Origin: Deltaproteobacteria bacterium
GTDB lineage: Bacteria; Bdellovibrionota_C; UBA2361; SZUA-149; JADZAE01
NCBI GenBank assembly: GCA_020852715.1
Contig: JADZAE010000034.1
Location: 57,786-121,785, forward strand
Reading direction: 5' to 3'
DNA length: 64,000 bases
The translations under genes and the position numbers were made by a program. The notes beneath the pieces are model-generated. The model made no database searches, was not told the origin of the DNA, and was given only the letters and a program-made list of their open reading frames with translations. Shown one piece after another: positions 35,369 through 53,859 of the stretch (the stretch's first letter is position 1; every line of letters starts with the position of its first letter).

Positions 35369-35875
35369 CTATTCTTTTGTAAGATTTAATATGGCAGCTA
35401 ATTCGCTCAGATCACTGTCGTTAGCTCTTTTGCTATCGTTGGAAGCAATAAAGCCTTCATATGTTTCAAAGTAAGTATCCACTTTACTGGAGACTTGTCT
35501 CCACTCTCCGCTTTTTAGATAGCCGGTGCCGTTTAGAGGAACGAGCTTAATATGTGCATGGTCTATTCCTGTGCCTTCCATGATCAGCCCGATACGCCCA
35601 ACGTCGTCTAGCTTCGAGACTAAGTGCTGAGCTACTTTTTTGGCCTCCAGCACAAACTTGCAAAGCTCATCGTCCGACATTTGCAGCACATCACTTCCGT
35701 AGTGTTGCTTGGGAGCAAGCACCGTAAATCCCTTGGTATTAGGAAAAGGAGAAAGCCATGCAATATAGTAGTCGTTCTCCCAAAATTTGCCGCCGCCCAG
35801 TGGCTGCATTCTCCCCGCAGCAATCTCACAAAAAATACACTTATTGTCCGCAGTCTTACTGTCGTATTTTGCCAT
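35369..35875 (-). CDS. HIT-family nucleotide hydrolase/transferase (variant triad)
   Basis: N-terminal CIFCEI and a HIT fold layout. The triad region reads IDHAHIKLVP (H-x-H-x-K instead of H-x-H-x-H). Confidence 0.7.
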   Translation of the reverse strand: MAKYDSKTADNKCIFCEIAAGRMQPLGGGKFWENDYYIAWLSPFPNTKGFTVLAPKQHYGSDVLQMSDDELCKFVLEAKKVAQHLVSKLDDVGRIGLIMEGTGIDHAHIKLVPLNGTGYLKSGEWRQVSSKVDTYFETYEGFIASNDSKRANDSDLSELAAILNLTKE

Positions 35876-36124
35876 AAAATTTTACCAGCTTAGTTTATGA
35901 ATAATATCCCCCGAAAATTATTACACCGCTTATTTGAAAAGAACATATCCTACGGCATAGATCCATTTGCCGGCCGAAGATTACATGACATAAAGATAAA
36001 AACAAGAGCCCGAAATAACAGGGCAGCTTTATTATTAGAGTGAGATTTACAACTCCCGCTTGCTTGACTATGATCTGATTTGCTGCTCATATCGTCTGGC
36101 TTGAATTTCAAGTAGCGAAATTAT

Positions 36125-37504: not shown

Positions 37505-37517
37505 AAGGTTCAACTCG

Positions 37518-37549
37518 ATAAAGGAGGCCGACATACCGGCCTCCTTTAT
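37518..37549. terminator. bidirectional intrinsic-terminator-like hairpin between convergent transcription units
   Basis: Perfect 13-bp stem ataaaggaggccg / cggcctcctttat with loop acatac, and A/T-rich flanks on both sides. It lies between the kinase pseudogene (+) and the last TraG-like gene (-). Confidence 0.55.
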
Positions 37550-37740
37550 AAAATTTCGAAGGTTTTGTTTTTCCGTTGCTTCTTCGGATAAAAAGCAGCA
37601 AATCTCTTTTCTTCGCAAAGCACTTCCAAGGCTTAAGATTTCTTAATGTAAAAGCCTAATTTGCAGGGTATATTGAAGCTAAAATCGTAGCATATACCCA
37701 GACGCCGATCACGACTAATGCTCGGCACCAATTTAAAGCC

Positions 37741-40302
37741 CTACTGATTGTCCTGAGGTAGGAACATGTCGTTCCAGCTGGTGGCAATAGTATCTGCCGA
37801 CTCAATTGCTGTGCTCCACAAAGCTTTTTGGCGTTCGATATCCATAACCCGCATATAATCAGCAGCTTCGCCAAGCGCCATTGCTGGGGTACCCGAAAGA
37901 GAAAAATAAGGGGCATTAAAAGCTCCGAAGCTTGTAGTCATCGCTCCAAAGCCCATATATTCAAATTCGGTTTTGGCTCTATCATAGACCCCCTGTAAAG
38001 CCATTCCTGATTGCATCAATTCTGCTTCATAATCCTGAGCCTTTTTTACAAATATGTTCCCCACGCCTACAGCCGTCTGGAACATTTTACCTACCTGAGT
38101 ATCGTCAGCTTTATTACTCTCGTACTCGGTTGGTAGTAACTTAGTCAAACTATCAATTGTTTTTGAATTTAAGCCACCTAATATACCTCTGCTTCGGGCA
38201 TTAGCTAAATATCTACCTGCTACACTTTTAGAATTAACATGCTCCACCGGATTAGTGCTATGATCAATCGGATTAACGCTTAATCCAGCCGGGATAGATT
38301 GAAAACCAATCGCTTCGGGATTTCTAACCGGAATTCTATCTTCCTGCTTAAAATAATTCATGGGAGCGAGATTGGCACCCTTACCGTATAAATCATTATG
38401 CAATGCTCCATAGGCTCTTTGTCCTTGATCCAAAATAAAGCTAGAGCGTAAATAGGCGGCAGCTTGGTTCACATCACTTACTGCCGGAGTAGAATAGTCA
38501 CCGGCAAAGCTTTTCATGCTAGCCGTTACATAGCCGTGGCTAGCACCAAGACCGCCTAATAATAACAAGGCTGTTATAATGGGTATTGATTGTAGTGCTA
38601 CTGCAATCATTTGATAATAAGTTGAAATATTAAATGTAGGATCAAGTTCTCTGATAGCATATAAAGCTGTTGCTAAATCAGCGCTAAGCATTGCTGCGGG
38701 AGTATTAACATCAGGCGACTTGCCAACTGAGATCATGTTAAATAAAAAGGAATCGATCAGCATAACTACCGAAAAGCCGACATCCCAGCTTTTTACCCAA
38801 AGCCATAACATAAACCAATAAATAAAAAATCCTTGCTTACCCGGCCAGAGTAAAACCAGAGCAAAAAAAGGATAACAAATAGCCAAGAAATATAAGAGTA
38901 TGCCTTGATAGTAAGGTAGTTGTTGCGCATGAGTTATCAGCACTGAACGATAGCGCCATTCATTCATTTTCTGCCGCTGTTTTTCTATTCCGGCCATAGT
39001 CATTGTATCAGCAGGCATGGCAATAGTTCCAGCCATACCTTCCACATCACTAAGACTTCCAATAAAAACAGAGTTATTATGCGCCTCAGCTGCTGTGTTG
39101 GACATTATATATTTGGCTACTACGCCATAAAGTAATTTGGGATTTTTTATTGTCTCCGAATCATCCAGATTCAAGCGAAACGCATCCGCTTTGCCATCGT
39201 TATAATTTGCACCCAATATTTGATATAAAGATTTAACCACATCTTTTTCGGCCACCCCCATGCCTCGACCTCTCTTTTTGGCGTTCTCGACAGCTTTTTT
39301 TGCCGATCTATACAAGCCTCCATAAGTAAAATTCCAAATATCTTTACAGGTGAAAGGTGGATCAACATTCTTAAGTTCTTCTTTCACCAATTCATACTCG
39401 GCTATCTTGGGATCGGCTTGTTTGTAATCTCCGCTTACTACACCCCCATTGGCACCATCCTTATCCGAGAGTTTATCTAACCACCTCGTTACCTTGTCTG
39501 TACCTTCATCCTCATTGGGAATTTGATCTAAGTTGATAAATTCTTCATTCCATTCTCCGGGAAAATCAACCTTCATTCGCGCTACATAATCCAAAGCATT
39601 TTCGCTTAAGCGCACGGGGTGAGTTTTTAAATATTCCTCATATTCTTTAATTTTCTCCTCACGCTCTTTTGCATTATATCTTAAAGTCAGATCTGTGCCA
39701 TAGCCGATACTTGCTAAAGTATAGGCTTCGCGGCATTCATTTAGAAATCCTAATTGTACTAGCTCGCGCAAGCCATCATCTTGAATGCGATAGCCTTGGG
39801 TATCAACAATCAGTTCCAGTTGGTTCATGAACTTAAGATCGATATTTTTCTTTTCAGCAATCATCACCCTAACCATCTCTTGAACAGTGTTGCTGATAAA
39901 ATTATTATAATAAGAAAATAACCAAGACACCTCGGCCTTAGTATCTTGGCCGGCCAGCTTTTCGTCCTTCATGGCCTCAAGCACAGCAGTATCTACTGAT
40001 TTCGATGAGCGCACCTGATTAGCAAAACGCCACTCGGCTGATTCGACTTTAGCTAAATTAAAAACACAAAACGCATATAACCCCGGACCAATCACAAACC
40101 AATAGAGATGCTTAAATGATCCGGTAACCACAAGTCGGACCAAGGCAATAATAGCAATTACACTAAAGATAAGCGCAGGAACGGTAGATTTAAGAGGCGT
40201 AGCTAACTGCTCAAGTAGATGGGCTTGATAATAGTAACCCACTGACTCCATCACAGAGCTGACAAATGATCCACCGGAGGCTACTGAGCTAAAATCTGCC
40301 AT
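37741..40302 (-). CDS. TraG N-terminal-domain (VirB6-like) family polytopic membrane protein, paralog 5 of 5
   Basis: 853 aa. The N-terminal pair of transmembrane helices follows a short conserved head (SFVSSVMESVGYYYQAHLL). The periplasmic loop carries two conserved Cys (FLNECREAYTL, PPFTCKDIWNF). The conserved block is QLPYYQGILLYFLAICYPFFALVLLWPGKQGFFIYWFMLWLWVKSWDVGFSVVML, followed by ELDPTFNISTYYQMIAVALQSIPIITALLL. Confidence 0.6.
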   Translation of the reverse strand: MADFSSVASGGSFVSSVMESVGYYYQAHLLEQLATPLKSTVPALIFSVIAIIALVRLVVTGSFKHLYWFVIGPGLYAFCVFNLAKVESAEWRFANQVRSSKSVDTAVLEAMKDEKLAGQDTKAEVSWLFSYYNNFISNTVQEMVRVMIAEKKNIDLKFMNQLELIVDTQGYRIQDDGLRELVQLGFLNECREAYTLASIGYGTDLTLRYNAKEREEKIKEYEEYLKTHPVRLSENALDYVARMKVDFPGEWNEEFINLDQIPNEDEGTDKVTRWLDKLSDKDGANGGVVSGDYKQADPKIAEYELVKEELKNVDPPFTCKDIWNFTYGGLYRSAKKAVENAKKRGRGMGVAEKDVVKSLYQILGANYNDGKADAFRLNLDDSETIKNPKLLYGVVAKYIMSNTAAEAHNNSVFIGSLSDVEGMAGTIAMPADTMTMAGIEKQRQKMNEWRYRSVLITHAQQLPYYQGILLYFLAICYPFFALVLLWPGKQGFFIYWFMLWLWVKSWDVGFSVVMLIDSFLFNMISVGKSPDVNTPAAMLSADLATALYAIRELDPTFNISTYYQMIAVALQSIPIITALLLLGGLGASHGYVTASMKSFAGDYSTPAVSDVNQAAAYLRSSFILDQGQRAYGALHNDLYGKGANLAPMNYFKQEDRIPVRNPEAIGFQSIPAGLSVNPIDHSTNPVEHVNSKSVAGRYLANARSRGILGGLNSKTIDSLTKLLPTEYESNKADDTQVGKMFQTAVGVGNIFVKKAQDYEAELMQSGMALQGVYDRAKTEFEYMGFGAMTTSFGAFNAPYFSLSGTPAMALGEAADYMRVMDIERQKALWSTAIESADTIATSWNDMFLPQDNQ

Positions 40303-40307
40303 AGTTT

Positions 40308-42653
40308 TTAATATCCTCTTCCCCGAGAACGTCCCATTTCTCCCTCGGTAGGTATTTCAGCAGTCGAAGGACCCTGCATCGGCAACTTTTCACTCGGTTC
40401 AGCTAGTTGAGCACCTAGCGCCGGAATTACCGTAATAATGCTATCCTGGACCTTTTCAGCATAATTAAAATCTGTTTGTGCTTTTAATGGCGCAATAAAT
40501 TTCTCATGATCAATAGCGGCCACCAAGTCATGACTATTCCAGCCTAGCATATTCATATCTTGAGCAAGTTGTATATTTCTAAGACTATTAGCTTCATTAA
40601 GCATAGCAAAATGAAGATTCTTCTCCACTTCGGCACCCACGAGCTCTTTTTTCTGGGCAGCCTCAGCTGCCGTCAGGCCACTGAAGATAGAATTCATTTC
40701 CTTAGTATAGGCATTAGCAATTTCGCCGAGAGCTACAGAATCTACCGCTTTGTCCGACGCTGCCTTCATATATTGAGAAGACAAACTTAGCAGCTTTTCT
40801 CCGCCAATAGCTTTAGCGACATTTGGTTGGAGATAGGCATTATAGAAATTGTTTTCGGTGGCCTGCCATATTCTTTTTTCGAATAGTGCTTTATTCTCCT
40901 GTAATTTTGTACTTGTCATATAGCGACCAATAGTAGTGCCAACATTGCCGGCAAAATTTGAAACGCCATTACTTACCGCATCTAATATTTCAGAACCTCC
41001 TTTTTTCACGATCAGCGCCATAATAGCCGGCATAGTAACAATACAAGCCGCGATTAAATTATAATATGTTGCGACCGAATAGGAAGGATCAACTTCCATT
41101 GCTCTTTTCAGAGCTTCGGCCGGTCCTTGCTGAACGTTCAGCAATTCAGTGGTCATGGGAGCTCCATGCGGCATGAACGCATATAAAATATCATCTATCA
41201 TCATCACAAAGGCCATACCCAAATCCCAAGATTTAACCCAAAACCACAGACTCATCCAAGAAAACACTACGTGGTGTCGTCCTGGAACCAAAAACATAAA
41301 AGCGACAAAAGGAAAAGCAGCAGCAAGGAAATAAAGCAATAATCCTTGTATATAAGGAAGGGTTTGGGCAACGGCAAGAAAGTCCCCCTTTCTATACCAA
41401 TGATCAAATGATCCAAACAACCTCATTGACCTGGCAATATCAGGATTATTGTATTTACTAGCCTCGGGCACACGCGATCCACTAGCGCCCTCTGTCCTTG
41501 TTACATCCTTAGACTCCAGAGCTGTCGGTATATAATTCATTTGCACTATCGTCGGATTTACCTGGCCTAGTTCTTTTACGAACATATTCATGGCGACTTC
41601 ATTAAGTAGGGCTTGCAATTTTTGATCATTACTCAATCCTTGAGTTTTTATTTTGTCATCATCGGTGCGCACTTCCATATCAAACTTCATCAATAACCTT
41701 TCCCGTGCTTTTTTGCGCATGTCTTTAGCAGCTTCGCTAGAATCATTGGCATTATCCATGCTTAATACAGCATCAAGAGTTTCCGTGGCATGTGCCTGCA
41801 AAATGGCAAAGCTAAGTTTCCAAGTGTCTAAGCAAGTAAGCGGGGAATCTTTCTTGATAGAACCATCGGTTTCTACCTTATCACCTAGAGTTTTAGCGGC
41901 AATGTCAGAAATTCCGTCTGTCTTTAGCCATTTAAGCAGTGGGGCGCGTGAGTCATCAGCTGTTAAAGCAACAAGGTTTCCGGCTTTCTTCATTTTTTCT
42001 TCTATTTCTGCGCGCTCAGGATTAGTAACACCTAAGTTATTTAAAGTACGAGCCAAAGTATAATAGGAGCTACAGTTATTTATTGTAGCTAAATTGACTA
42101 GTTGTTTTAGATTTTCGTCGGTAATCGTTGCTTTAAAAAGACCTTCGTATTTTTTTACTTGATTTAAAAAATGCACATCACCATCTTTTTTTACCACCCC
42201 TAAAGCATCAATCGTGGCTTGGATGACTCCGCTAGTAAATCTATTCCATTCAGCAAACATCGTCGATACTTTCATTGATGTCGCAGCTTGAGAGCCTTGA
42301 CTGTCACTATTATAAGTTACTCCTTTGGTATATTTTTCTACATAGGCGCTATCTCTCTTTTTACTACCAAACTGCCAAGCTGCTCCTGTCGAATCTTCAG
42401 TATTAAGAATAGCAACGTAAAATAAGGCGGGACCAATTAAAAACCAACGAAAGAATTTATAATCGCCACCCATGGCATAAGTGACAAAGGCAATTAAAGC
42501 CGAGAGGAGATAACAGAGAGCACCGAGTGAATAAGCTAAGCCATCAGTATCTAAATGTTTTAAGATTTCGGATTGCAAATATTGGCCGCTTGTTTCCAAA
42601 GTAGCAGCAATTATGTTGCTTACGCTACCAATTTGTGAAGTATCAAGCGACAT
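40308..42653 (-). CDS. TraG N-terminal-domain (VirB6-like) family polytopic membrane protein, paralog 4 of 5
   Basis: 781 aa. Motifs TINNCSSYYTL, SPLTCLDTWKL, TLPYIQGLLLYFLAAAFPFVAFMFLVPGRHHVVFSWMSLWFWVKSWDLGMAFVMM, EVDPSYSVATYYNLIAACIVTMPAIMALIV. The C-terminal tail is divergent. Confidence 0.6.
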   Translation of the reverse strand: MSLDTSQIGSVSNIIAATLETSGQYLQSEILKHLDTDGLAYSLGALCYLLSALIAFVTYAMGGDYKFFRWFLIGPALFYVAILNTEDSTGAAWQFGSKKRDSAYVEKYTKGVTYNSDSQGSQAATSMKVSTMFAEWNRFTSGVIQATIDALGVVKKDGDVHFLNQVKKYEGLFKATITDENLKQLVNLATINNCSSYYTLARTLNNLGVTNPERAEIEEKMKKAGNLVALTADDSRAPLLKWLKTDGISDIAAKTLGDKVETDGSIKKDSPLTCLDTWKLSFAILQAHATETLDAVLSMDNANDSSEAAKDMRKKARERLLMKFDMEVRTDDDKIKTQGLSNDQKLQALLNEVAMNMFVKELGQVNPTIVQMNYIPTALESKDVTRTEGASGSRVPEASKYNNPDIARSMRLFGSFDHWYRKGDFLAVAQTLPYIQGLLLYFLAAAFPFVAFMFLVPGRHHVVFSWMSLWFWVKSWDLGMAFVMMIDDILYAFMPHGAPMTTELLNVQQGPAEALKRAMEVDPSYSVATYYNLIAACIVTMPAIMALIVKKGGSEILDAVSNGVSNFAGNVGTTIGRYMTSTKLQENKALFEKRIWQATENNFYNAYLQPNVAKAIGGEKLLSLSSQYMKAASDKAVDSVALGEIANAYTKEMNSIFSGLTAAEAAQKKELVGAEVEKNLHFAMLNEANSLRNIQLAQDMNMLGWNSHDLVAAIDHEKFIAPLKAQTDFNYAEKVQDSIITVIPALGAQLAEPSEKLPMQGPSTAEIPTEGEMGRSRGRGY

Positions 42654-42665
42654 TTTCCCTCCTAA

Positions 42666-44732
42666 TTAGTTACCATCTAAATCTATCTCATTAGAGGACT
42701 TTGGCGGCGTTGGGTCTTCATCACTTTGAACTCCCGGTCGTGAGTTTCCAGCGCCAAGCATTTTATTATACTCAAATATATTACGCGCCTGAATATCTTG
42801 ATTTCCCTTTAGGCGTTCTGCTGCAGTCAGCGAGGAAAAGTTTGCATCGGTACCCGCGGCGCCGCGTGGCTCCATTCCTGATCTAAGAAGAGCAGTTTTT
42901 CCTAAATCAGTTTCACGTCCTGGCTGAGTATTATAACTCCTAGCTTGCGATAGCTGCGCTTGTCTATTCATTTCATTTCGATGAGTTCTATCGCCAGCTA
43001 AAGCTATGGGAACACCGCTATCAGTATAGCCGGGGTTATTAGCTGCTTTCTCCGCACCACCCACATTATATAGCGCGCTATTTACTCCAATCATTAACGC
43101 TTGATCAGATGCATATTGACGTCTTGCCGATTGCAAAAATCTTTTCTCAAAACTTCCTAACGGTTTCATGGCCTTAGAAACAAAACCTTTAACATGACCC
43201 GCCCCTAAACATAAATTTGCAGTCAAAATAGGTATAGATAAAGTAATCAGAGAAATGATTGTACTATAAGTATTTGGCGTAGCTATAGGATCATTAACCG
43301 AGATGAACGAATAAATTGAATCTATATTTTCCCAATTAATTGTTCCGGCTACATGGTTTATGTCACGCGAGGTAAACTGCCAGAGAAAGTCTTTAAAAAA
43401 GACGACTATGGCAAAACCAACGTCCCAACTTTTCGCCCAAAGCCAAATAAACATCCAATTAAAAAACACTGTCGCGCGACCAGGCATTAACAAAAACAAT
43501 GCAAAAAATGGGAAAAGCGTAGTCATAACCATAAGAATTAATCCCTGGATATAAGGAATAAGGCCGGCAAAATACACCATTTTAGAAATCATTGTTGAGC
43601 TATTGGCCGCAGCAACTTGCGTGTAGACTGAAGATACGTGCTCGCCGGAAATAGCGTTTTGCTCATATATCTGATTAATCAACAAAGAGTGAGCATTTTT
43701 TTGCATAGTGTTTCTTAAAAGAAAAGCCGCTATTACATCAACGGCTCTCTCTGAGGAATTCCCATTTTGTCCGTTCTGCCCGGCAATAGTCTTTTCTACT
43801 TCAGCCCAAACCTCTTTCCATGGAATATCTGACTCGCCCATTCCATCAGCACCTGCCGTGCGCTCTTGTTGTTTATTCTTTAATATTATGGCCTCGTCAT
43901 GACATGCTTTTTTAATTACTTCATATAAGCGCTGACAACTAATGCTCTTAGTCTCTTCCTCAGGGCTTATTAGACCACCATCTAGTGCTTTAAGATAATC
44001 TATTACTCCATGATCGAGATTAATGAATGTATTTTCCCTTCGTATCCTGGCCTTAGTTTTTAGATCTTCCTTTTGCGTGACATTAGTAATGCGTGCCGCT
44101 TCATTGGCATAACTGGACGGATCAGCACACTTACCCATAAGGCCAAAGGACAATAAGCGCATAAAATGCGGGTTTTTATTTTCATAATTAAGCAAATAAT
44201 TAAACAATCGCTCTCTGCCGGCAATTATCATATCCTCTCTATTTTCAGTATCCAGCAATACGCCGACAAGAGACTGCACTAAGCTGCTAATAAATTGATC
44301 ATAGTAAACATAAAAACGAGAGACTTTCTTTTCTTGATTATCGTTTGAACTGCTACCATCTTCTTTTTTATACAGCATGTTATAAAACGTTTCTTGCCCC
44401 TCGACAGAATTAGCGACGACACGGTTTCCGAACTTCACTGTGGTCGCATCCACCGGAATTGTGTCTTTTAAAAAGAAAAAGAATAGCGCCGGGGAAATCA
44501 CCAAATATAAAGCTTTTTTATAATTACCAAACACACCATAAGAAATTAAGGCTCCGACTAAAGAAACCAAATAAATTAAAGCTCCGATAGAAGTAATCAT
44601 CTCGCTCATATTAGATAGCACAGAAGCCTGACCATCAAGCCCTGTGCTTTGCAGCAAAGCAGAGACAAAGTGACCTACAGATCCTATCTCTGCACTACTG
44701 ATCGACTCTCCTATTTCGCCAATTTCTGCCAT
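42666..44732 (-). CDS. TraG N-terminal-domain (VirB6-like) family polytopic membrane protein, paralog 3 of 5
   Basis: 688 aa. Motifs LMGKCADPSSYA, KSISCQRLYEV, LIPYIQGLILMVMTTLFPFFALFLLMPGRATVFFNWMFIWLWAKSWDVGFAIVVF, NDPIATPNTYSTIISLITLSIPILTANLCL. Confidence 0.6.
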   Translation of the reverse strand: MAEIGEIGESISSAEIGSVGHFVSALLQSTGLDGQASVLSNMSEMITSIGALIYLVSLVGALISYGVFGNYKKALYLVISPALFFFFLKDTIPVDATTVKFGNRVVANSVEGQETFYNMLYKKEDGSSSNDNQEKKVSRFYVYYDQFISSLVQSLVGVLLDTENREDMIIAGRERLFNYLLNYENKNPHFMRLLSFGLMGKCADPSSYANEAARITNVTQKEDLKTKARIRRENTFINLDHGVIDYLKALDGGLISPEEETKSISCQRLYEVIKKACHDEAIILKNKQQERTAGADGMGESDIPWKEVWAEVEKTIAGQNGQNGNSSERAVDVIAAFLLRNTMQKNAHSLLINQIYEQNAISGEHVSSVYTQVAAANSSTMISKMVYFAGLIPYIQGLILMVMTTLFPFFALFLLMPGRATVFFNWMFIWLWAKSWDVGFAIVVFFKDFLWQFTSRDINHVAGTINWENIDSIYSFISVNDPIATPNTYSTIISLITLSIPILTANLCLGAGHVKGFVSKAMKPLGSFEKRFLQSARRQYASDQALMIGVNSALYNVGGAEKAANNPGYTDSGVPIALAGDRTHRNEMNRQAQLSQARSYNTQPGRETDLGKTALLRSGMEPRGAAGTDANFSSLTAAERLKGNQDIQARNIFEYNKMLGAGNSRPGVQSDEDPTPPKSSNEIDLDGN

Positions 44733-44747
44733 AGTTATGATAAAATT

Positions 44748-47255
44748 TTATTTAATAAATCCTACCGCCGATTCTACATTTGTCGTCCACTTCCTTTGCT
44801 CAGTAGTCGCCTCGCTCCTTACCTTTGTCATCATTGGAGTCATTAGATCTCCGGGACTAAACTCTACTAAGCCAAATGGCTCACCGCGTCCATTGGACAT
44901 AGCGCGCAGTTGTTCAAACTGTCTAACTCCGACATTATTAGAGTAATACTCACCAAGCATCATACCGGCTTGCCTCTGTCTTTGCTGAGCTTCCAAGGCT
45001 GTAGCATCTCTGGCACTGTCTTGAGTGGCTCTATTTTGGGCAAGCGTTGCATTTGCCCCACCCCAAGCGGAAATTGGATTAATCATTGCACCCCCGGCCG
45101 TAGCCACCATACCCAACCCACGCTGAAAGGCCGATTCTTCCTCAGTGCTTTTAAAGTTTGCTCGCGCTTCTGTCATTTTCTCATTCATATCTTTCATGAA
45201 AGGAATATTGCTTTGAAAAGAATTAACATCGTTAGCATACATACTTTGAATAGTGCGTGCTTCAAAATTACGTCGCATGTTATTATACTGCGAGGAAAGG
45301 CGGGCTGATTCTGTCGTTCCTACCGCTCCGGCCATAGTAGAACCAACGCTTTTAAAATTATCAACAAATGCCGATAACCCTGCTGCTTTAGCCCCAATAA
45401 TCAGTCGCGCCATGATTACAGGAACTGAGGTCACTAAAAGCGCAATCAAGGTGTAATAATTGGCCATATTATAACCAGGATCACCAAAGAATGCTTGCTC
45501 CATTATGGTAATAGGAGTTTGTGCGTAGCTACTCGTGGGATCGTAAAAACCACTATGTGGCATTAGTTGCCATAAAATATTGTCTAGAATCATGACCAAT
45601 GACCAACCAAAATCCCAGCTTTTTAGCCATGCCCATAGAGCACACCAAGAGAAAAATACATTGGCTTTTCCCGGTAATACAACAGCCAGACAAACAAATG
45701 GAAAAGCTAAAGCTAAAGTGTAAAGCAAAACACCTTGCACATAAGGTATCATCATGGCAAAAATAAAAAGTTCATGTTTTTTTCGATTAGCAATAATATG
45801 GTTGATAATCTGATTACCAAACTGCCACATTTCTTTTTCCGAATAAGCAGTGGCTCCGGTTGGATCAAAAACAGAAGAGGTAGGAATTACGCCGGAGTGC
45901 TCGGCAAATGAAGTTATTACTTTTCCATGCGTTCCATCAGCTTGAGCTTTCCTCAGCATATATCCACCGATGATAACAGGGATCAATGAGATTTTAGGAT
46001 CAGATTTTTTATTATCTATTACTATTTCCTCAGCTGGATACTCAAAAGACGAGCCTCCTTCAGGATCGTATTGATAGTTAGGCCGGCTTTGCAATTTGAT
46101 AGCTATATCATCCATGATCGCCTTTAGAAAATCGCCCTTTGAAGTATCATTGTTTTTAGCTACTTTATCTTTAACGGCTTTTTGTAAATACTCCGCTCCT
46201 TCTTTGTATAAACCTAGCCCCATCAGCACCCAAAGCTGATTACAACTGGCTTTGTTGTGCATAAAGGTAAGCTCTTTCTCTACTTTTAAGGCTTCATAGT
46301 CTTCGGCGAATGTGTTTCTAACATCCCTATCCATGACCCCAAACCCCCCATTAGAACCCTCGGCTGAATTCCCAAGATTTAATCCAGCTAAAGGATCAGT
46401 AAACACGCCATTTGCTTGTGCGTCTTGAATTTGATTGATGTAGCGGGTGAGAGGACCGGTGCGTAACGGTTTGGTTTCAGCATTGCCATCATAAAGCTTG
46501 GCGTAATCAGCAGCAGCTCTTCTATATTCGGGTGAATTTTTATATTCTGGATCTTTTTCTCCCAAAGCTAAGATCCTTGCCGCTTCTAATTCATCAGCAC
46601 ATACGGCCAAGGTATACTGAGTAAAAGTATTTAAATCAGGAGAGCCAATGCGCGCAGTGATAATATCTTCGTATAGCTGCTGGCGAATAGTAAATTTCAT
46701 TTTATTCATCAAAGCTTTGTCTGAAATAACAGTAATCATCTGTTGCACTGTTTCGGAAACAAATTTGTTGTATTGATGAAAGAACCAAGAGACTTTTGGC
46801 GCTTTCTCATCGGCTTTGAGCCAGCGCACTTGCTCATTTTGCGGATCTAGAGCAGCCTCTTTAATTAGAGCTGAGGCAGCAGCCGTCTTTTCAGCATATT
46901 GCCATTCGACACCTTGCCCGGAGTCCGTAGTTCGTATTAAAAAAAACAATAACCCCGGGCCAATAAAAAACCATAATGCCGTACCGTAGCTTCCCGAAAT
47001 GACAAAAGTGATCATTGCAGCTAAAGCCGCACCGATAAAGAACAATGCCCCTAAACCAGTAAGCATTTTTGCTAAGTCTTCTAACACAATTGATTGTGCT
47101 TTATAGCCGGCTGATTCTAAACCAGCGGCAGCTAAAGTACCTGTGCTGGCGTATTCTGTGCTGTTGTTGCTAGACTGAGCATAAACAGACAGAGGCGATA
47201 AAACTATCATTAGGCATAAGATTATCAATATGTATTTATGCCATCTCATAATCAT
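44748..47255 (-). CDS. TraG N-terminal-domain (VirB6-like) family polytopic membrane protein, paralog 2 of 5 (the only one with a cleavable-looking signal peptide)
   Basis: 835 aa. It has an extra N-terminal MIMRWHKYILIILCLMIVLSPLSVYAQS. Motifs TLAVCADELEAA, NKASCNQLWVL, MIPYVQGVLLYTLALAFPFVCLAVVLPGKANVFFSWCALWAWLKSWDFGWSLVMI, GDPGYNMANYYTLIALLVTSVPVIMARLII. There is a 4-nt ATGA overlap with paralog 1. Confidence 0.6.
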   Translation of the reverse strand: MIMRWHKYILIILCLMIVLSPLSVYAQSSNNSTEYASTGTLAAAGLESAGYKAQSIVLEDLAKMLTGLGALFFIGAALAAMITFVISGSYGTALWFFIGPGLLFFLIRTTDSGQGVEWQYAEKTAAASALIKEAALDPQNEQVRWLKADEKAPKVSWFFHQYNKFVSETVQQMITVISDKALMNKMKFTIRQQLYEDIITARIGSPDLNTFTQYTLAVCADELEAARILALGEKDPEYKNSPEYRRAAADYAKLYDGNAETKPLRTGPLTRYINQIQDAQANGVFTDPLAGLNLGNSAEGSNGGFGVMDRDVRNTFAEDYEALKVEKELTFMHNKASCNQLWVLMGLGLYKEGAEYLQKAVKDKVAKNNDTSKGDFLKAIMDDIAIKLQSRPNYQYDPEGGSSFEYPAEEIVIDNKKSDPKISLIPVIIGGYMLRKAQADGTHGKVITSFAEHSGVIPTSSVFDPTGATAYSEKEMWQFGNQIINHIIANRKKHELFIFAMMIPYVQGVLLYTLALAFPFVCLAVVLPGKANVFFSWCALWAWLKSWDFGWSLVMILDNILWQLMPHSGFYDPTSSYAQTPITIMEQAFFGDPGYNMANYYTLIALLVTSVPVIMARLIIGAKAAGLSAFVDNFKSVGSTMAGAVGTTESARLSSQYNNMRRNFEARTIQSMYANDVNSFQSNIPFMKDMNEKMTEARANFKSTEEESAFQRGLGMVATAGGAMINPISAWGGANATLAQNRATQDSARDATALEAQQRQRQAGMMLGEYYSNNVGVRQFEQLRAMSNGRGEPFGLVEFSPGDLMTPMMTKVRSEATTEQRKWTTNVESAVGFIK

Positions 47256-50200
47256 TTCTCCTCTCCCGAACCATTTCCCCAGTGAAAATCATTAGAGCTA
47301 GCAGGAGCAGGTTGAAGATGAGCAGGCTGTTCATCATTTAAATTATCAATTACATACGGCATCGTGCGATCAGCAATCTTTTTAGTATCCGGATAGGTAA
47401 CACCAAGTTCATGATATTGACCCTGATAACCCAGAGCGTCTAGTGTTGCGGCTCCATAGCCATAAGGGAAATGTAAGATATTTAACGACTCATTTTCGAT
47501 GGCTGCTCTTCTTTGTTCTTCTGTTACAGGCATTAACCAGTCCATGGCATTACCGGTAAAATTCAAATATTGTTCGCCAATCGCTTGATCATCAGCTTCG
47601 CCCCAATAACCCATACCTGTGGTAGCGGCGAAACCGCCACCTTGACCAAAAAACCCGCTTCCTGGTTTAAATCCGGCGATAAATTTTGGGTTAAAAACAC
47701 TACTAAAAGCATTACCTACAACAGCATTCACTACATCAAACTTCGCCTTAAATAAATTTTTTGAGGTTTCGACTGTTGCTCCATACGCATGGTCTATAAC
47801 CTGCATTTCAAAACCACTTTCTGAATCACCTAAGGCGTTCGATCGGGATTCCATTGCAATACCTCTATCGCTAAAGCGGCCATAATCGGGATTCCAGACT
47901 CTATTGTATCCTATTCCTGCTGTAATTTCAGCGTCACGCACTTTTGTATAATTACTAAAAGCTTCTTTAGCTATGCCGGTGACAGAGGATTTGATCTGTG
48001 GAAGTGATATAGGCGCAGCATTGACACCGCCGGTTTTAACGATATCGCTGGCATTATTAGTAACAACTGTGGCGGCTCCTAACATGCCGGCATTGGCCCA
48101 TCCGGTAAGGTTATTGAGATAAGTTCTACCATATTCACCTGTAGTCATAGGAGCATAAGCTAACGCACCCATCGCCTGGTTCGCACCGGCCTGAGTATTA
48201 GCAAAATCTGTAGCATACCCACTCCCACGAATAGAACCTGAAGCGGAGGCAGATGAGGCCATCTGATCAGAAAATATCGCCAAAGCGCTACGTTTCCCTT
48301 TAAGAATAAGTAAACCCGTAATTGCCGGGATAGCAAAAATCCCCATTGAGATCATCATGTAATAACTATGTAAGTTATAGGTGGGATCTACACGCATTGC
48401 TTCTTGAAGAATGGTTTCAAACTCCATCGACTGAAAGCTCATATCTTTAATCCGAACCCCAATATCGGTCTTAGGGAAAATATTCCAAATAATTCTATCC
48501 GTGACCATAATAATGGCCATACCGATGTCCCAACTTTTCACCCATAGCCAGGTTAAGAAATATGTAAGCATTGATTGAGCACGATTAGGAACCAAGACGA
48601 TCAACGCTACAAAAGGATAGGCGGCTGCGAGCAAATAAAGAATCAGTCCCTGCCAATATGGAAGCTGCAGAGCATAAGCATAAATACTTTGTCTTAGGGT
48701 CCTGGTATGATAGCGCTGCTGTTCCACATAAGCCATATCCAATGGCCCACCAATCTTACCTATTGTTGTATAAACCGAAGTTCTAGTCTGATTTGTCTTC
48801 TTATGTTTAAATACCCCTAAGCCCATGGTATCCTGCGATACATTGCCGGAAGTATAAACGAACAAGGCATCAAAAAATTTTCTTGTTTCTACATTAGTAG
48901 AATCTTGAACGAATTCCCAATTCTGTGAATCTTCTAAGGCCGCAATTTTCTTCCCGGGGATATCACCGAGAAAATTCATTTGGTTTTTCTTGATATTAAT
49001 TGCGTGTGAGCGTTCAGATCCAGCGATTCCATTTCGCAACATGTAAATCAGAGACACTCGCACTAAGTCACAATCCCCGACTAATGACTCAGCGGCTACA
49101 TTTCCTGTGTAGTTTTCTTTCTGCAGCACTTCCAAAACAGACCAACACAATTCGTTTTGTAACCGTTCTCTGTCTTCTTCTGCTACTTCTCCCTTCGGGA
49201 CATGCTTTTCCTTGAGCTCGTTACTTAACCAGTCGGCTTCTTTAACCATGGCGTGCTTAAGTATTTCCCACATTGCGCCACAGGGGATAGCAGTTGATTT
49301 CCAGTTGTTTCCCTGAGCATAACTTATTAAATCTTGCACCCCCGGATATTGCTTATACTTCTCAATATAATCATCTAAACGGCCGGCTAAGCCATTCTCT
49401 ATACTCTGACCCAGATTTGCTTTTACGTAATTTGCAGTATCCGCAGTGGGCGTCATGTATTTTTTAAACCTAGCTGTTTCTAGATCTTGTTCGCTGATAA
49501 TTTTTGCCGCATCGAGATAGTTAGTGTAATCACTTAATCCCTCAGCATTCGAACCGTCTTCCTGAATATGCTCTTTAAACTTGTCTATTCGGGTTTGACT
49601 TAGTTTTTTGGAATCAAATACCGTTGCTCCGGTTAAAGACGAGCAGCGGTCAAATAAATCTGACGTTAACATTTTAGTAACTTCGGGCAGATTAGGATTA
49701 GCGTTTAATACTCCTTCCAGCATTTTAGCTTTATTTAAAGACATCAACGCTTTGTCATCTTTATGGGAAATAATAAGGCTAACAAACTGTGCTACCAGTT
49801 GGTCGATCAGCTTGATCATTTGCGCAAAAACGCTAGACACCCTAATGTTGTCGCTGTCGGATATTGATCCCTCGCCTTTACGCACCGCATTGAGATTTTT
49901 GTTAGAATCCTTGTAAGTCACAACATTGACGGCTAAGGCGGCCGGGTCTGTATTTTCTTTCTCATAGACTTTAGTTAAAGAGCGCGGATAGCCCGTTGCA
50001 CCGAGGCGCCAAATTGAACCGCTTAAATCTTCACGTGGAGTAATCAATAGATAATAAATAAAAGGCATGATGAATAAATAGCGGAAAAGCTTAAAGCTAC
50101 CAAAAACTACCATTGAAATCATGGCACCCAGTGCAGCAAATAAGAAGAGTAAGGCGCCTGTCGAATTAAAAAAGTTCTCGAAGGCGTCCAAAAACTGCGC

Positions 50201-50275
50201 CTGAGTGATGTAACCGGCAGTCTCTAATGCTGCCGTCACAAATGATGCTGCTGAAGTTACATCAGCCATGATCAA
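47252..50275 (-). CDS. TraG N-terminal-domain (VirB6-like) family polytopic membrane protein, paralog 1 of 5 (the largest)
   Basis: 1007 aa. Motifs LFDRCSSLTGAT, TAIPCGAMWEI, QLPYWQGLILYLLAAAYPFVALIVLVPNRAQSMLTYFLTWLWVKSWDIGMAIIMV, RVDPTYNLHSYYMMISMGIFAIPAITGLLIL. It has a unique C-terminal soluble region of about 330 aa. Confidence 0.6.
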   Translation of the reverse strand: MIMADVTSAASFVTAALETAGYITQAQFLDAFENFFNSTGALLFLFAALGAMISMVVFGSFKLFRYLFIMPFIYYLLITPREDLSGSIWRLGATGYPRSLTKVYEKENTDPAALAVNVVTYKDSNKNLNAVRKGEGSISDSDNIRVSSVFAQMIKLIDQLVAQFVSLIISHKDDKALMSLNKAKMLEGVLNANPNLPEVTKMLTSDLFDRCSSLTGATVFDSKKLSQTRIDKFKEHIQEDGSNAEGLSDYTNYLDAAKIISEQDLETARFKKYMTPTADTANYVKANLGQSIENGLAGRLDDYIEKYKQYPGVQDLISYAQGNNWKSTAIPCGAMWEILKHAMVKEADWLSNELKEKHVPKGEVAEEDRERLQNELCWSVLEVLQKENYTGNVAAESLVGDCDLVRVSLIYMLRNGIAGSERSHAINIKKNQMNFLGDIPGKKIAALEDSQNWEFVQDSTNVETRKFFDALFVYTSGNVSQDTMGLGVFKHKKTNQTRTSVYTTIGKIGGPLDMAYVEQQRYHTRTLRQSIYAYALQLPYWQGLILYLLAAAYPFVALIVLVPNRAQSMLTYFLTWLWVKSWDIGMAIIMVTDRIIWNIFPKTDIGVRIKDMSFQSMEFETILQEAMRVDPTYNLHSYYMMISMGIFAIPAITGLLILKGKRSALAIFSDQMASSASASGSIRGSGYATDFANTQAGANQAMGALAYAPMTTGEYGRTYLNNLTGWANAGMLGAATVVTNNASDIVKTGGVNAAPISLPQIKSSVTGIAKEAFSNYTKVRDAEITAGIGYNRVWNPDYGRFSDRGIAMESRSNALGDSESGFEMQVIDHAYGATVETSKNLFKAKFDVVNAVVGNAFSSVFNPKFIAGFKPGSGFFGQGGGFAATTGMGYWGEADDQAIGEQYLNFTGNAMDWLMPVTEEQRRAAIENESLNILHFPYGYGAATLDALGYQGQYHELGVTYPDTKKIADRTMPYVIDNLNDEQPAHLQPAPASSNDFHWGNGSGEEK

Positions 50276-50287
50276 CCTTCATCGAGC

Positions 50288-52135
50288 TCAGTTATTATTC
50301 ATTGGATTCATACCTTCCGCCACACCGCCTAAAGTGCTTTGCGCCTGTTCACGACCATTCTGCGCAGTGAAAGCATTATTAGCATTTTGACTTTCCATCA
50401 CACGAGCATCTCTGGTTGCCGCCAACTGCAGTTGCTCTTCCACTAAATACTGCGCAGCAATTTCAGCATCAGCCTGCCGAAACTTGCGTTCAAAGCGAGC
50501 AATCATGTTGCGCATTTCCGCTTTCTGCTGCTCATCCATTACTCGATTCAGCATCAAATGATCCTCAATAATGGCTTTTGTGTTTTCATGTATTTTCTTT
50601 AACGCAGCAACTGCCGAAGCATCGCAAAAAGAGTTGACAAATTTAAGCATCTGACCGGTTGGTTTCCAATTCTGCGGAACAGGAGGCTTGACTGGCGAAA
50701 ACACAAACCAAGACTCAATATCAGCGGCCTTCAATATTTTACCCAATGAAGCATCCGGCCATAACTCTCTTAACTTCGCCATCTTGTCCTCAGTAGGGGG
50801 CCAATTTTTCAGTATGTCGATAACTGCCGGACAGATTCCGCCCCACCTAATTCGTCCATTTTCATCTCCCGGAGCGAAATTCTCTCCTCCGCCAGTTGGA
50901 GCATTTTTGCCGTCACGTAAAATAGCAATATACTGACTCACGGAAAGCAATGGCGGTATATACTTAAACTGCAAAGGCACAGGGCTTTGTTCGTCCGCTT
51001 GACCAGGCTCTCCATTTCCACTCGAACTCTCAATTATAAAAGCAATATCTCCGTATAATTCCTTCGCAACAAGTGCAGCATCTGGCACCAGTAATTCTTC
51101 TCCATTTGCTGCTTGGCCATTTATAGAATTAGCTTCTGGCTTGCTTGTTCCCATAAAAATGCGATCGACTAGGCTCCAGACGCCCTCTTTATTGACATCA
51201 AGAACACCGGTGTTCACCGACGTTAAAGTTTCTGCACAACATACACAAAATTCATATAATCCCTTAGTGCCCTTTTGATCATTATTTCCCGAAGCGGTTG
51301 GAAAGGTGCCGCATTTTTTCTTACAAATTGGATTAGTTTGCATTTCCTCTGCTTTAACCCGCTTCTTAAAATTTTCAAGTTCCTTAGACTGAGGTCCATA
51401 CGCTGCTTGACTCAGCATGCACGCTTCTACTTTTTCATCAACATCAGAAAAAAGTTGTTTTCTCTGCGGGTCAGTTAATTCTTTCGTTGCCCAATTTATC
51501 TGCTTTAGTAAGTGGATGCTGGTATTGTCATCGGCCTGCTGCTGTGTGGTCGCTAGAGCAGCCGCTACAGTTTTATCTGCAAAACTAAGAGTCAAAATGG
51601 TTGTGCCTCTTAGTGTTGTATATAGCTGGCGAAAATCCTGATCGCTGGTTACATTTTCGGTAAAATCTTTACGCATAGATCTAACTGACTGAAATACCGG
51701 CATTTGAGCCTTGCGCACTTCATCATCGACGCCTAGAGTTAGTGCTCCAAGACTAGTTGGCGATTTCTCCCAATTTGTTTCCTGCCCACCACTTCTTAAC
51801 TCCGGATATTGGTTATTAGCAGCAACATTACTTTTTTTAAGCAGCAAAGTAGATCCTAAATAACCATCATAAGCTGAGGCCCAACCATCAAAGGTCAGGA
51901 TGGGGTCATTTACCTCCTTACCTTCTATTTTAATATCATCAGTAACAAAATCGTAATGAGTACTAAATGGGTCGGCGCCTTCAGTAGTCTTCGTTACTTT
52001 AGTAAATTGGCCCGTTCTCATCTTATCTTCAATATTCGGTCGAGCTTCAGTTGTTTGTGAAAATGTGTCGCTAGTTAAAAAACTTGATCCGATGATGATT
52101 AGAAGGATTACTAAAGTTTTATTTATAGTTTTCAT
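50288..52135 (-). CDS. secreted Cys-rich protein with a C-terminal coiled coil. It occupies the TraH position (between the TraF-like and TraG-like genes), but homology to TraH is not established.
   Basis: Signal peptide MKTINKTLVILLIIIGSSFLTSDTFSQ. Cys cluster NPICKKKCGTFPT...YEFCVCCAETL. The C-terminus is a Q/E/R-rich coiled coil (QKAEMRNMIARFERKFRQADAEIAAQYLVEEQLQLAATRD). It is separated from its neighbours by 12-21 nt. Confidence 0.4.
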   Translation of the reverse strand: MKTINKTLVILLIIIGSSFLTSDTFSQTTEARPNIEDKMRTGQFTKVTKTTEGADPFSTHYDFVTDDIKIEGKEVNDPILTFDGWASAYDGYLGSTLLLKKSNVAANNQYPELRSGGQETNWEKSPTSLGALTLGVDDEVRKAQMPVFQSVRSMRKDFTENVTSDQDFRQLYTTLRGTTILTLSFADKTVAAALATTQQQADDNTSIHLLKQINWATKELTDPQRKQLFSDVDEKVEACMLSQAAYGPQSKELENFKKRVKAEEMQTNPICKKKCGTFPTASGNNDQKGTKGLYEFCVCCAETLTSVNTGVLDVNKEGVWSLVDRIFMGTSKPEANSINGQAANGEELLVPDAALVAKELYGDIAFIIESSSGNGEPGQADEQSPVPLQFKYIPPLLSVSQYIAILRDGKNAPTGGGENFAPGDENGRIRWGGICPAVIDILKNWPPTEDKMAKLRELWPDASLGKILKAADIESWFVFSPVKPPVPQNWKPTGQMLKFVNSFCDASAVAALKKIHENTKAIIEDHLMLNRVMDEQQKAEMRNMIARFERKFRQADAEIAAQYLVEEQLQLAATRDARVMESQNANNAFTAQNGREQAQSTLGGVAEGMNPMNNN

Positions 52136-52156
52136 ATACTACTCCCTAAGGTTAAC

Positions 52157-53371
52157 CTAAAACTTTTCACTTAGCTTGTTCTCCGCAGAAGTTCGAGAAA
52201 CAACTCCGCTTACTGTTTTCAAACCACTTGTTTTGTTTTTGGAATCACTGATAATAAGCCGACCGGCAGCTAGCTTCTCTTGCTCTATTTTTCCAATCGG
52301 GGTTTCCATTAACTTGGCTATCTCCGGCGTAATTTGCGCTGGCAATCCCTGAACGGTGCGAGCAAATTCATAAAGACGAGCAAATTCTTGTTTGCCGGAT
52401 TTAATGTAGGCGGTTTTACTATTCGGGGCGACGATAACAACTGCAGGCACTAAACCAATATTAAATGATTTGGCAACTTGTGAACCTTCAAAAATGGGCA
52501 GAGTCATTCCAGTATAGTCACGATAAGACTGCACATGTGTTTTAGAAACGGGAACAAGCGACATTGCCGCCATTCTTAAATTTTTATCACCTTTGGTAAC
52601 TTGCCATAAGCGCTCAATATCGGCCGCCATCTCGCGACAGTATGTGCAAGATAAAGTAAAAAAGTAATAGATCTCTGCTTGGTTTTTCGTATCCGGAGTA
52701 ATGCGCTTCATCGCTTCTTCGTGCGTCGGCTTTAGAATAGACATATTGTCTTCACGACCTTCAGCAAACGCCATATCGGCATATTGTCCGACACCAACAA
52801 AATCATCTTCTTTTATTGCCCCCTTATTAATTAAAGCTTTGCCAATGAGATTGGTAATCTGCTTAACTTCAAACATTAGATTCATCATGTAATCAACAAA
52901 CGCTCCGGCATACTGTTCGGCGCCTCGCATGTCGCCCATGCGGTAGGAAATCATCATCTCTTTAAATTCATCGGGGGCATCAGCAGATATTCGGCCTAGG
53001 GCTTTATTTCGATTTTGTTGTTGCTTGGCTTGCTCCAAACGCTGAGAGTTTTCTTCTTGTCGTTTCCTTTCTTCTAGCGCATCGGCTTTCATTTGTTCTG
53101 CTTGATCAAGCGGGACCAGCATACCGTCAAAGACATTATCGTTGGTCAGCTTCTTTTTGAAAAAATCTGTCATGAAAGTATTTTTCGGTTTATAACCGGG
53201 AACACTTTGCGCATGACTCGAAGGCGCACCAAAGACGACAAGGCTTAGGCTAAACGCAAAGAGCATCAACAATGAACGCGCTGACTTTATATTCAGTATC
53301 GCCGGCATGAACTTATCCTTCGTATATATAGTCTCTGCTGCCACCACTTTCTTTGCCTTATCCTTCCGCAT
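52157..53371 (-). CDS. TraF-like periplasmic thioredoxin-fold protein with an intact CxxC motif (TraF/TrbB class of F-type T4SS)
   Basis: The probable start is the ATG at 53308 (MPAILNIKSARSLLMLFAFSLSLVVFGAPSSHAQ, with an aagga RBS 9 nt upstream). The layout is a coiled-coil Q-rich linker (QRLEQAKQQQNRNKALG) followed by a thioredoxin-like core, IYYFFTLSCTYCREMAADIERL ... GLVPAVVIVAPNSKTAYIKSGKQEFARLYEF. This parallels F TraF from memory (GIMFFYRG...YFPAMMLVDPKQGSVRPLSYGFISQDDL). Confidence 0.55.
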   Translation of the reverse strand: MRKDKAKKVVAAETIYTKDKFMPAILNIKSARSLLMLFAFSLSLVVFGAPSSHAQSVPGYKPKNTFMTDFFKKKLTNDNVFDGMLVPLDQAEQMKADALEERKRQEENSQRLEQAKQQQNRNKALGRISADAPDEFKEMMISYRMGDMRGAEQYAGAFVDYMMNLMFEVKQITNLIGKALINKGAIKEDDFVGVGQYADMAFAEGREDNMSILKPTHEEAMKRITPDTKNQAEIYYFFTLSCTYCREMAADIERLWQVTKGDKNLRMAAMSLVPVSKTHVQSYRDYTGMTLPIFEGSQVAKSFNIGLVPAVVIVAPNSKTAYIKSGKQEFARLYEFARTVQGLPAQITPEIAKLMETPIGKIEQEKLAAGRLIISDSKNKTSGLKTVSGVVSRTSAENKLSEKF

Positions 53372-53584
53372 TATTATTATGAGCCGCTCTAGCCTTCTGG
53401 TTTCTTTTAAGGAGCTAAAGTTATTAAATAAATTCGTCTTCAGATTTTCTTTGCGATTTAATATTTTTTGCTTTCGGCAAAAAATGAGCGCAAGAAATCT
53501 GCAGACTTAACACCACGTCTATCAATCAATCGGGCAATTTTGTAGGCTGCTTCAGAAAGCAAAGCAGTTTTATTTAGATAAGAT

Positions 53585-53608
53585 AACCTCTTGAGAATAC
53601 AAGAGGTT
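53585..53608. terminator. 9-bp stem-loop in the gap between the PhoH-like gene and the Tra-like operon
   Basis: aacctcttg-agaata-caagaggtt with T/A runs on both sides. It is a candidate terminator for the PIN-PhoH transcription unit, or it may be part of the leader of the downstream operon. Confidence 0.35.
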
Positions 53609-53859
53609 TTAAATCACGAATTGATTGTTTGTATCCTTTCACGATTTTTACTGAGATTCTATCCAAAAACCCCAAGAGGGGGCAAGTTTTGCGAAGCAAA
53701 ACTATGGGGGGATAAAGACTAAGCCTTCACAAGATTAGTCGTTTCTGATGAGGAAACGTTAATAAAATTAAAAATATCCATTTTTATAATACCCCCAAAT
53801 TTTTAATAAAACTTATCCCGTGAAGGCTTACGATTGTTTTTCGGCTAAATTACGAGATA

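Follow-up and report, generated by a model that had tools for sequence, protein, structure and literature searches.

A conserved chromosomal operon of Bdellovibrionota with five TraG_N/VirB6-like paralogues: a possible envelope apparatus of type IV secretion system origin

What might a chromosomal operon be used for that resembles the envelope part of an F-type type IV secretion system (T4SS), carries five TraG-like genes in a row, and has none of the usual pump genes beside it? This question is raised by a 64,000-nucleotide (nt) stretch of a deltaproteobacterial genome assigned to Bdellovibrionota (assembly GCA_020852715.1, contig JADZAE010000034.1, positions 57,786 to 121,785 of the forward strand), the whole of which is referred to here as the window. 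An earlier interpretation made without database searches (hereafter the sequence-only reading) had described seven co-directional genes in this stretch as an ancient, domesticated derivative of the F-type mating-pair formation and stabilization module that serves something other than conjugation; our analysis confirms that observation and partly supports the interpretation. All seven open reading frames (ORFs) are located on the minus strand within positions 37741-53371, and the intergenic distances calculated from their coordinates are, in order from the first gene to the last, 21, 12, -4, 15, 12, and 5 nt, exactly the tight packing that had been described. They encode a periplasmic thioredoxin-fold protein of 404 amino acids (aa), referred to as F (52157-53371), a secreted Cys-rich protein of 615 aa, referred to as H (50288-52135), and five polytopic membrane proteins, G1 (47252-50275, 1007 aa, TTG start), G2 (44748-47255, 835 aa), G3 (42666-44732, 688 aa), G4 (40308-42653, 781 aa), and G5 (37741-40302, 853 aa). 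We tentatively propose, with somewhat less than even confidence, that the locus encodes a T4SS-derived envelope apparatus that is specific to its clade and vertically inherited, and in which G1-G5 form a hetero-pentameric platform.

Judging from profile comparisons, the five large proteins are remote members of the TraG_N/extended VirB6 superfamily. All of them are mutually homologous (BLASTP E values from 1e-16 to 5e-52, approximately 21-39% local identity): G1 matches G2-G5 at 1e-16 to 5e-41, and G2 matches G4 at 5e-52 and G5 at 6e-49. G1 and G2 have no direct match in Pfam; G1 is recognized by the hidden Markov model (HMM) of the G family at 2e-134, and its orthologues sit in the same position in other loci. 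G3 gives the best match of the five to TraG_N (PF07916; E 6.1e-13, 49 bits, above the gathering score of 36.1), followed by G4 (E 2.3e-8, 33.9 bits), which falls just under the gathering score, and by G5 (E 6.8e-7, 29 bits), which also falls under it. TraG_N is the sole recurrent Pfam family among the G orthologues and matches 31 of 52 of them at E<=1e-3 (best 6.3e-12), and no match to TrbL/VirB6 (PF04610) was found by Pfam in the G proteins of the window or in their orthologues. Because single-sequence hhalign comparisons with F plasmid TraH, TraN, and TraG were uninformative, profiles of four sequences (from F, pLPL, and one plasmid each of Citrobacter and Klebsiella) were used for the Tra proteins of the F-type mating-pair formation class (MPF_F). 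By comparing the 52-orthologue profile with the four TraG N-domains, we obtained a probability of 74% and an E value of 2.8e-5 over the hydrophobic core, in which LPYxQG...FPFF of the G proteins pairs with LPxxQ...FPL of TraG. In addition, phmmer with pLPL TraG matched a G4 orthologue at E 0.002, and the G profile found only a spurious low-complexity match among PDB sequences. An all-helical AlphaFold2 (AF2) model of G3, with a predicted local distance difference test score (pLDDT) of 70, was compared with PDB structures by Foldseek, and the only hits with a probability >0.1 were R388 TrwI/VirB6 and DotA, which is suggestive only. The description of these proteins as TraG_N-like holds.

Hydropathy and Cys positions outline a common architecture, in which an N-terminal pair of transmembrane segments and a large loop precede a hydrophobic helical core, and the C-terminal extension is hydrophilic. 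Residues that are invariant in all five paralogues include two Cys, P..QG, FP, and WD; the two Cys are located in a loop of about 300 residues after the first two transmembrane segments, and the C-terminal tails differ strongly in length and sequence. G2 alone has a cleavable-looking N-terminal signal peptide; it lies ahead of the conserved N-terminal helix and was seen in 11 of the 12 G2 sequences inspected, including that of the window. A G5 orthologue in one related locus (L033:12283-15204; L numbers designate related loci) carries a C-terminal SLT lytic transglycosylase domain (E 7e-32), and another (L038:22475-22805, where the gene runs off the locus) shows a weak Peptidase_M23 match, while G5 of the window has no peptidoglycan-hydrolase domain. 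Together, the signal peptide of G2 and the SLT and M23 domains of G5 indicate that the N-terminus, the Cys loop, and the C-terminal tail are all periplasmic, as has been reported for the topology of F plasmid TraG (PMC7555446). The C-terminal tail of G5 would then reach the cell wall and deal with peptidoglycan.

We further examined whether the array is conserved in relatives by scanning one genome per species, which yielded 28 loci, all in metagenome-assembled genomes (MAGs) whose titles mostly name Bdellovibrionales, Bdellovibrionota, Oligoflexia, or (Delta)proteobacteria. The order F-H-G1-G2-G3-G4-G5 is kept in about 20 of these loci, at 22-47% identity to the window proteins, and the same plan is found in the more divergent loci L032-L034, L038, and L044; the seven genes are thus real, as the whole array recurs in about 20 other genomes. 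Of the 99 G ORFs of the other loci, BLASTP assigns 94 to a single window paralogue without ambiguity and in agreement with their position in the array, indicating that the five paralogues predate the clade. Exactly five G genes are present in 14 of 14 arrays bounded on both sides (the window's included), with one gene split into two ORFs in two of them. The surroundings are conserved as well, with genes for a TPR-like protein, a 4HBT thioesterase, a 2-oxoacid dehydrogenase E2, and one or two polysaccharide deacetylases found repeatedly next to the array. The TPR-like orthologue directly follows G5 in most complete loci and directly precedes F in L026, L032, and L044, and the 4HBT and deacetylase genes flank the array in L001, L002, L003, L007, L008, L010-L012, L014, L015, L018-L021, L024, L034, and L038. 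The same seven genes in the same order and neighborhood at such identities in many Bdellovibrionota MAGs bear out the view of the sequence-only reading that this is an ancient chromosomal locus; it is chromosomal, old, and vertically inherited.

Several departures from the common plan were also observed. In L001 (L001:1-9981), the array starts at G2, right after divergent sulfatase/phosphodiesterase genes, and F, H, and G1 are elsewhere or lost. A second, reduced locus (L029:6831-14040), from the same MAG as L006 and L017, contains two genes of no recognized kind (304 and 365 aa), after which come one F-like, one G-like (653 aa), and one H-like gene, so that G precedes H. In one sub-clade, G2 and G3 are separated by an additional gene of about 260 aa (L002:4307-5086 and L034:6041-6847, with gaps at this place in L011-L015), for which no Pfam family was found.

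Why should exactly five distinct copies be kept? VirB6 homologues form central pentamers in R388 (TrwI), in Dot/Icm (DotA), and in AlphaFold 3 (AF3) models of other systems, and extended VirB6 proteins with added hydrophilic domains are a recognized class (PMC12857230). Considering these pentamers together with the retention of exactly five distinct orthologous copies, we propose that G1-G5 assemble in a 1:1:1:1:1 ratio into one hetero-pentameric platform of the inner membrane and periplasm. A different use of the same genes would be that the G proteins are interchangeable and that each builds its own homo-oligomer for different targets or conditions, a possibility that has been discussed as open for the paralogues of Rickettsia (PMC8035066) and with which the great differences among the C-terminal tails would agree. 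We consider it highly improbable for the present locus. All five genes occur in fixed order in every array bounded on both sides across deep divergence, their overlapping or near-zero spacing is typical of stoichiometric co-translation, and no lineage-specific gain or loss of copies was seen except the split at L001.

The protein encoded between F and the G genes had been called a TraH-position protein. This description holds for its place and for its general features, which are of the TraH type: a signal peptide, conserved Cys, a C-terminal coiled coil, and a gene located between a thioredoxin gene and a traG-like gene. Six Cys of H (239, 271, 275, 297, 299, and 300) are invariant or nearly so, the long coiled coil spans approximately residues 494-602, and the AF2 model is confident (pLDDT 78.8, predicted template-modelling score 0.74). 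In F plasmid, TraH is a Cys-rich, secreted protein with a C-terminal coiled coil that binds TraF (PMC7555446). However, homology to TraH could not be supported: the likeness is one of kind only, and the Cys spacing differs from that of F TraH; no Pfam family was found for H; Pfam searches of 13 orthologues (E<=1) and of 10 distant members (E<=0.01) detected neither TraH (PF06122) nor TraN; hhalign of a 55-sequence H profile against the four-sequence TraH profile gave a probability of 0.6%; and tblastn against 72,556 plasmids found no match (tblastn gathering of more diverse TraH sequences saturated on near-identical enterobacterial F plasmids). Among PDB sequences the H profile matched only Gly-linker artefacts, such as those of single-chain Fv (scFv) linkers. 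An exhaustive HMM search of 1.84 billion proteins found only 111 representatives of the family, and the ten of them checked for source and name are metagenomic and come from near-singleton clusters; a word-index search started from an alignment of 13 H sequences yielded nothing beyond the same four proteins, Gly-rich words having probably swamped the signal. Two other candidate identities were rejected. A TraN-like Cys-rich outer-membrane protein receives no signal from Pfam or hhalign, and the model is helical rather than a beta-barrel; a VirB5/IcmX-like cap is given no support by Foldseek. By all these sequence comparisons, H appears to be a novel family without known relatives, and its membership of the TraH family is not supported. 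In the proposed apparatus, H would probably dock on the G platform as a periplasmic or outer-membrane-facing partner.

A similar division applies to F, which had been named TraF-like. What stands is a periplasmic thioredoxin fold: F has a signal peptide or anchor (approximately residues 28-51) and a conserved helical N-domain, its CxxC motif is formed by C242/C245, and it matches Thioredoxin_2 at 1e-4. The TraF profile (PF13728) remains below threshold in the window protein (E 0.015, 15.6 bits, with a gathering score of 23), and better scores are reached by generic thioredoxin families. Across 11 orthologues, Thioredoxin_8 is matched by nine (best 3.6e-8) and TraF by five at E<=0.1 (best 1.8e-4), and hhalign of F with F-type TraF gives a probability of 28.6% over 22 columns. 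The alignment shows that the CxxC motif is absent in L025 and L026 though the F protein is kept, and that the family ends in an invariant [KR]-Phe in all 11 aligned sequences. F may therefore be described, as far as these matches go, as a thioredoxin-fold periplasmic CxxC protein with a weak resemblance to TraF. Such a protein would probably oxidize, isomerize, or chaperone the loops of the G proteins and H, in the way that TraF/TrbB act on TraH/TraU/TraN of F plasmids.

The sequence-only reading had also stated that the components which make a T4SS a pump are absent from the 64-kb window. This is correct, as Pfam annotation of nearly all non-nested ORFs >=120 aa contains no integrase, transposase, VirB4, coupling protein, relaxase, or pilin. 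The related sequence that we examined amounts to 683 kb, namely the window and 40 related loci, whose flanks make up about 620 kb and cover parts of genomes only. VirB4/TraC, TraB/K/V, pilin, relaxase, and integrase genes were not found in the window or in these flanks by searches that are insensitive: phmmer with F and pLPL Tra proteins on the 683 kb gave only a marginal TraG-to-G4 match and missed a known coupling protein. The precomputed Pfam annotation of eight loci likewise contains no VirB4, core, or pilin genes. The known coupling protein is chromosomally encoded, is of the VirD4 family (type IV coupling protein, T4CP; 682 and 701 aa), and lies 5-6 kb upstream of F, beside a LOG-family gene, in L038 (L038:1242-3290, plus strand) and L039 (L039:2061-4166, minus strand). 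It has T4SS-DNA_transf, TrwB_AAD_bind, and TraG-D_C domains with intact Walker A and B motifs, and is 24-26% identical to plasmid VirD4-like proteins. Between L038 and L039 the T4CP is 79% identical, the F proteins 54%, and the H proteins 42-48%. Orthologues at 58-64% identity are found on other metagenomic contigs in unrelated contexts (L040:9980-12115, L041:4010-6487, L042:9533-11944, where it adjoins a hybrid histidine kinase, and L043:1-1245). The presence of a T4CP near the operon in L038 and L039 makes a general claim that no ATPase is involved unsafe; the absence of a coupling protein is true of the window and not of the system's relatives.

These observations bear on two further explanations. 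According to the first, the operon is a VirB6-plus-accessory islet of a complete T4SS dispersed over the genome in the manner of the rvh system, with VirB4, VirB8-10-like, pilin, and coupling genes elsewhere and with conventional secretion of effectors or DNA as its task. The Walker-intact T4CP near the operon and its orthologues on other contigs would fit such a system, the peptidoglycan-hydrolase domains fused to G5 resemble VirB1 function, and the T4SS of Rickettsia, whose genes are scattered, includes five divergent rvhB6 paralogues (PMC8035066). What speaks against it is that VirB4, TraB/K/V, pilin, and relaxase are all missing from the window and its relatives' flanks, as far as insensitive searches of partial genomes can tell. 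We regard a dispersed T4SS as rather unlikely; it is compatible with a hetero-pentamer of the G proteins.

According to the second, the operon is a stand-alone domesticated module, a passive and ATPase-free envelope structure for stabilizing contact or adhesion, for membrane remodeling, or for a prey-attachment or entry pore, which is close to what the sequence-only reading had suggested. No ATPase is encoded within the operon in any of the approximately 20 loci, the nearest being the T4CP at its distance of several kilobases, and the array has its own conserved chromosomal position among neighbors that are not T4SS genes (TPR, polysaccharide deacetylases, and thioesterase). We know of no VirB6-family protein that works outside a T4SS, which counts against such a module, as does the T4CP near the operon in two relatives. 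F plasmid TraG does have, together with TraN, a non-pumping role in mating-pair stabilization (PMC7555446). On balance, a fully self-contained structure appears doubtful. Returning to the apparatus with a hetero-pentameric G platform, we suppose that the module would not be self-sufficient as a pump and would most likely work with components encoded elsewhere, at least with a VirD4-type coupling ATPase.

A number of results weigh against the proposed T4SS-derived hetero-pentamer and should be considered together. No relative of the G proteins was found by tblastn in the 72,556 plasmids, and the G family HMM does not directly match plasmid TraG, so that the link to T4SSs rests on profile-level similarity over about 135-260 residues. 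The structural hits of the G3 model in the PDB are not significant, with Foldseek probabilities of 0.18-0.28 and E values of about 1-4 for TrwI/VirB6 (target-normalized template-modelling scores of 0.23-0.36 for the TrwI chains) and a probability of 0.14 with an E value of 3 for DotA. H has no detectable relative of known function, and its model has no Foldseek match in PDB or BFVD. VirB4 was not found in the 683 kb by phmmer with all F and pLPL Tra proteins, a search of low sensitivity, and the T4CP lies near the operon in one sub-clade only and is absent from the window. The start of the L001 array at G2 and the additional F-G-H mini-locus of L029 suggest that the stoichiometry may not be rigid. 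Finally, the equation of five paralogues with a pentamer is numerology so far, a best guess derived from the count of five. The pentamer, the roles of F and H, the substrate, and the purpose of the apparatus are all points that we infer, and a role in prey contact or injection is speculation. It is a bolder and unlikely thought that the locus encodes a VirB4-independent envelope-spanning device, built of a hard-wired hetero-pentamer and two proteins of new fold, driven by VirD4 or free of any ATPase, and used for contact with, invasion of, or injection into prey.

The setting of the operon in the window is that of ordinary chromosome. Its content of guanine and cytosine (GC) is 0.40-0.43, compared with 0.39-0.48 in the remaining window, and the flanks consist of housekeeping genes (def, fmt, rpe, serA, pgl, a trmD fusion, holA, PhoH, and motA/motB/fliL/fliM/fliO) together with a phenylalanine transfer RNA (tRNA-Phe) gene and glycosyltransferase genes, in agreement with the host-like composition and housekeeping flanks that had been noted earlier. 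The absence of integrase and transposase genes, which had also been remarked on, was reproduced by the Pfam annotation of the window. A decaying integrative and conjugative element or plasmid remnant was rejected on the basis of the host-like GC content, the lack of an integrase, and the conserved chromosomal synteny at 22-47% protein identity. Upstream of F, an intergenic region of 488 nt (53372-53859, minus strand) separates the operon from a PIN-PhoH gene and is likely its promoter region; it contains, as consensus matches only and on the minus strand, two hairpins resembling terminators (53683-53669 and 53608-53585) and a site resembling a promoter (53685-53656). The upstream PhoH gene, a 213-aa ORF, and a HEAT gene were considered as operon members and rejected, since they are not conserved beside the operon elsewhere and the 488-nt gap with its hairpins lies between.

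On the other side, the recurrent neighbors are present on the plus strand as a 4HBT thioesterase gene (31966-32406), a Polysacc_deac_1 gene (32321-33508), and the gene of the TPR-like protein (33505-35127, 540 aa, weak Pfam match to TPR_19), which is convergent with the operon. The approximately 2.6 kb between G5 and the TPR gene (35128-37740) has a GC content of 0.476, compared with about 0.42, and a positive GC skew, and contains a HIT-family gene and short ORFs without matches. Because no equivalent block between G5 and the TPR gene exists in other loci, this segment looks like a lineage-specific insertion or decayed genes. In L034, an IS110-family transposase (L034:15517-16470) lies between G5 and the conserved downstream neighbors, indicating that the downstream junction of G5 tolerates insertions there, as in the window. 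The trmD fusion mentioned above is a 454-aa ORF (16214-17578, plus strand) in which the TrmD tRNA (m1G37) methyltransferase is fused to an RNA methyltransferase domain dependent on S-adenosylmethionine (Methyltrn_RNA_4).

One claim of the sequence-only reading had to be abandoned. The ORF at 1609-5055 on the minus strand, which had been taken for a TraU-like protein, has no Pfam match at E<=1 and reaches only E=1 in BLASTP against F TraU; nothing was found by phmmer with the TraU sequences of F and pLPL or by a search of PDB sequences. The ORF encodes a protein of 1148 aa with 26 Cys and no strongly hydrophobic segment, which belongs to none of the F, H, and G families.

A literature search found no description of this operon. 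If the five G proteins do form one ring, the locus would provide a natural hetero-pentameric VirB6 in which each ring position is separately mutable, and this could help to settle how the VirB6 protochannel opens, a question posed by the R388 and Dot/Icm homo-pentamers. Such a ring would also be a second independent case, beside the rvhB6 genes of Rickettsia, in which the number of VirB6 paralogues equals the number of subunits, and would suggest a general route from homo-oligomeric to hetero-oligomeric parts of secretion systems. For Bdellovibrionota, the operon represents a conserved and undescribed envelope system in uncultured relatives of bacterial predators, with two protein families in it, H and the N-domain of F, that have no known relatives. 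It also bears on whether parts of T4SSs can function without VirB4.

Comparison with known systems helps to delimit what is familiar in this locus. With the corresponding segment of MPF_F plasmids it shares the sequence of one or more thioredoxin-fold genes, a gene for a secreted Cys-rich coiled-coil protein, and a gene for a TraG_N polytopic protein with a periplasmic C-terminal extension. The traF-trbB-traH-traG genes are contiguous in Legionella pLPL and have the same order in F, so that the match in gene order pointed out by the sequence-only reading is real. F plasmid TraG has exactly two Cys, located in its N-region, as in the G family, and the pair of TraF (without CxxC) and TrbB (with CxxC) has a parallel in the F family, whose members also occur with or without this motif. 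In contrast, MPF_F plasmids have a single traG within a full T4SS (TraC, TraB/K/V, pilin, TraD, and relaxase), whereas the present locus has five G genes and lacks all of these components; no homology of H to TraH could be detected, F resembles TraF only faintly, and the 72,556 plasmids gave no match. The VirB6 pentamers of known structure, R388 TrwI with TrwJ/VirB5 and DotA with IcmX, resemble the proposed apparatus in having a central platform or protochannel capped by a secreted helical partner, and in the number five (PMC12857230). They differ from it in being homo-pentamers of one gene product in an ATPase-driven machine, and H is unlike VirB5 or IcmX.

The closest precedent is the set of five rvhB6 genes (rvhB6a-e) of Rickettsia. 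The rvhB6 genes sit directly beside rvhB3/rvhB4, whereas neither VirB3 nor VirB4 is found in the present locus or its flanks. The rvhB6 proteins represent the P-type VirB6/TrbL branch, in contrast to the paralogues described here, which match TraG_N (PF07916); moreover, thioredoxin-fold and novel Cys-rich genes precede the paralogues here, and the host belongs to Bdellovibrionota instead of Alphaproteobacteria. As in the present locus, the rvh genes are chromosomal, vertically inherited, and not carried on a mobile element, and they include five strongly diverged tandem VirB6-class polytopic paralogues with large hydrophilic extensions; further rvh genes, among them rvhB4, B8, and B9, have been identified at other places in that genome (PMC8035066). 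What sets the operon described here apart from these systems is the combination of the TraG_N branch, five copies without adjacent VirB3/VirB4, two partners without known relatives, and hosts among the Bdellovibrionota.

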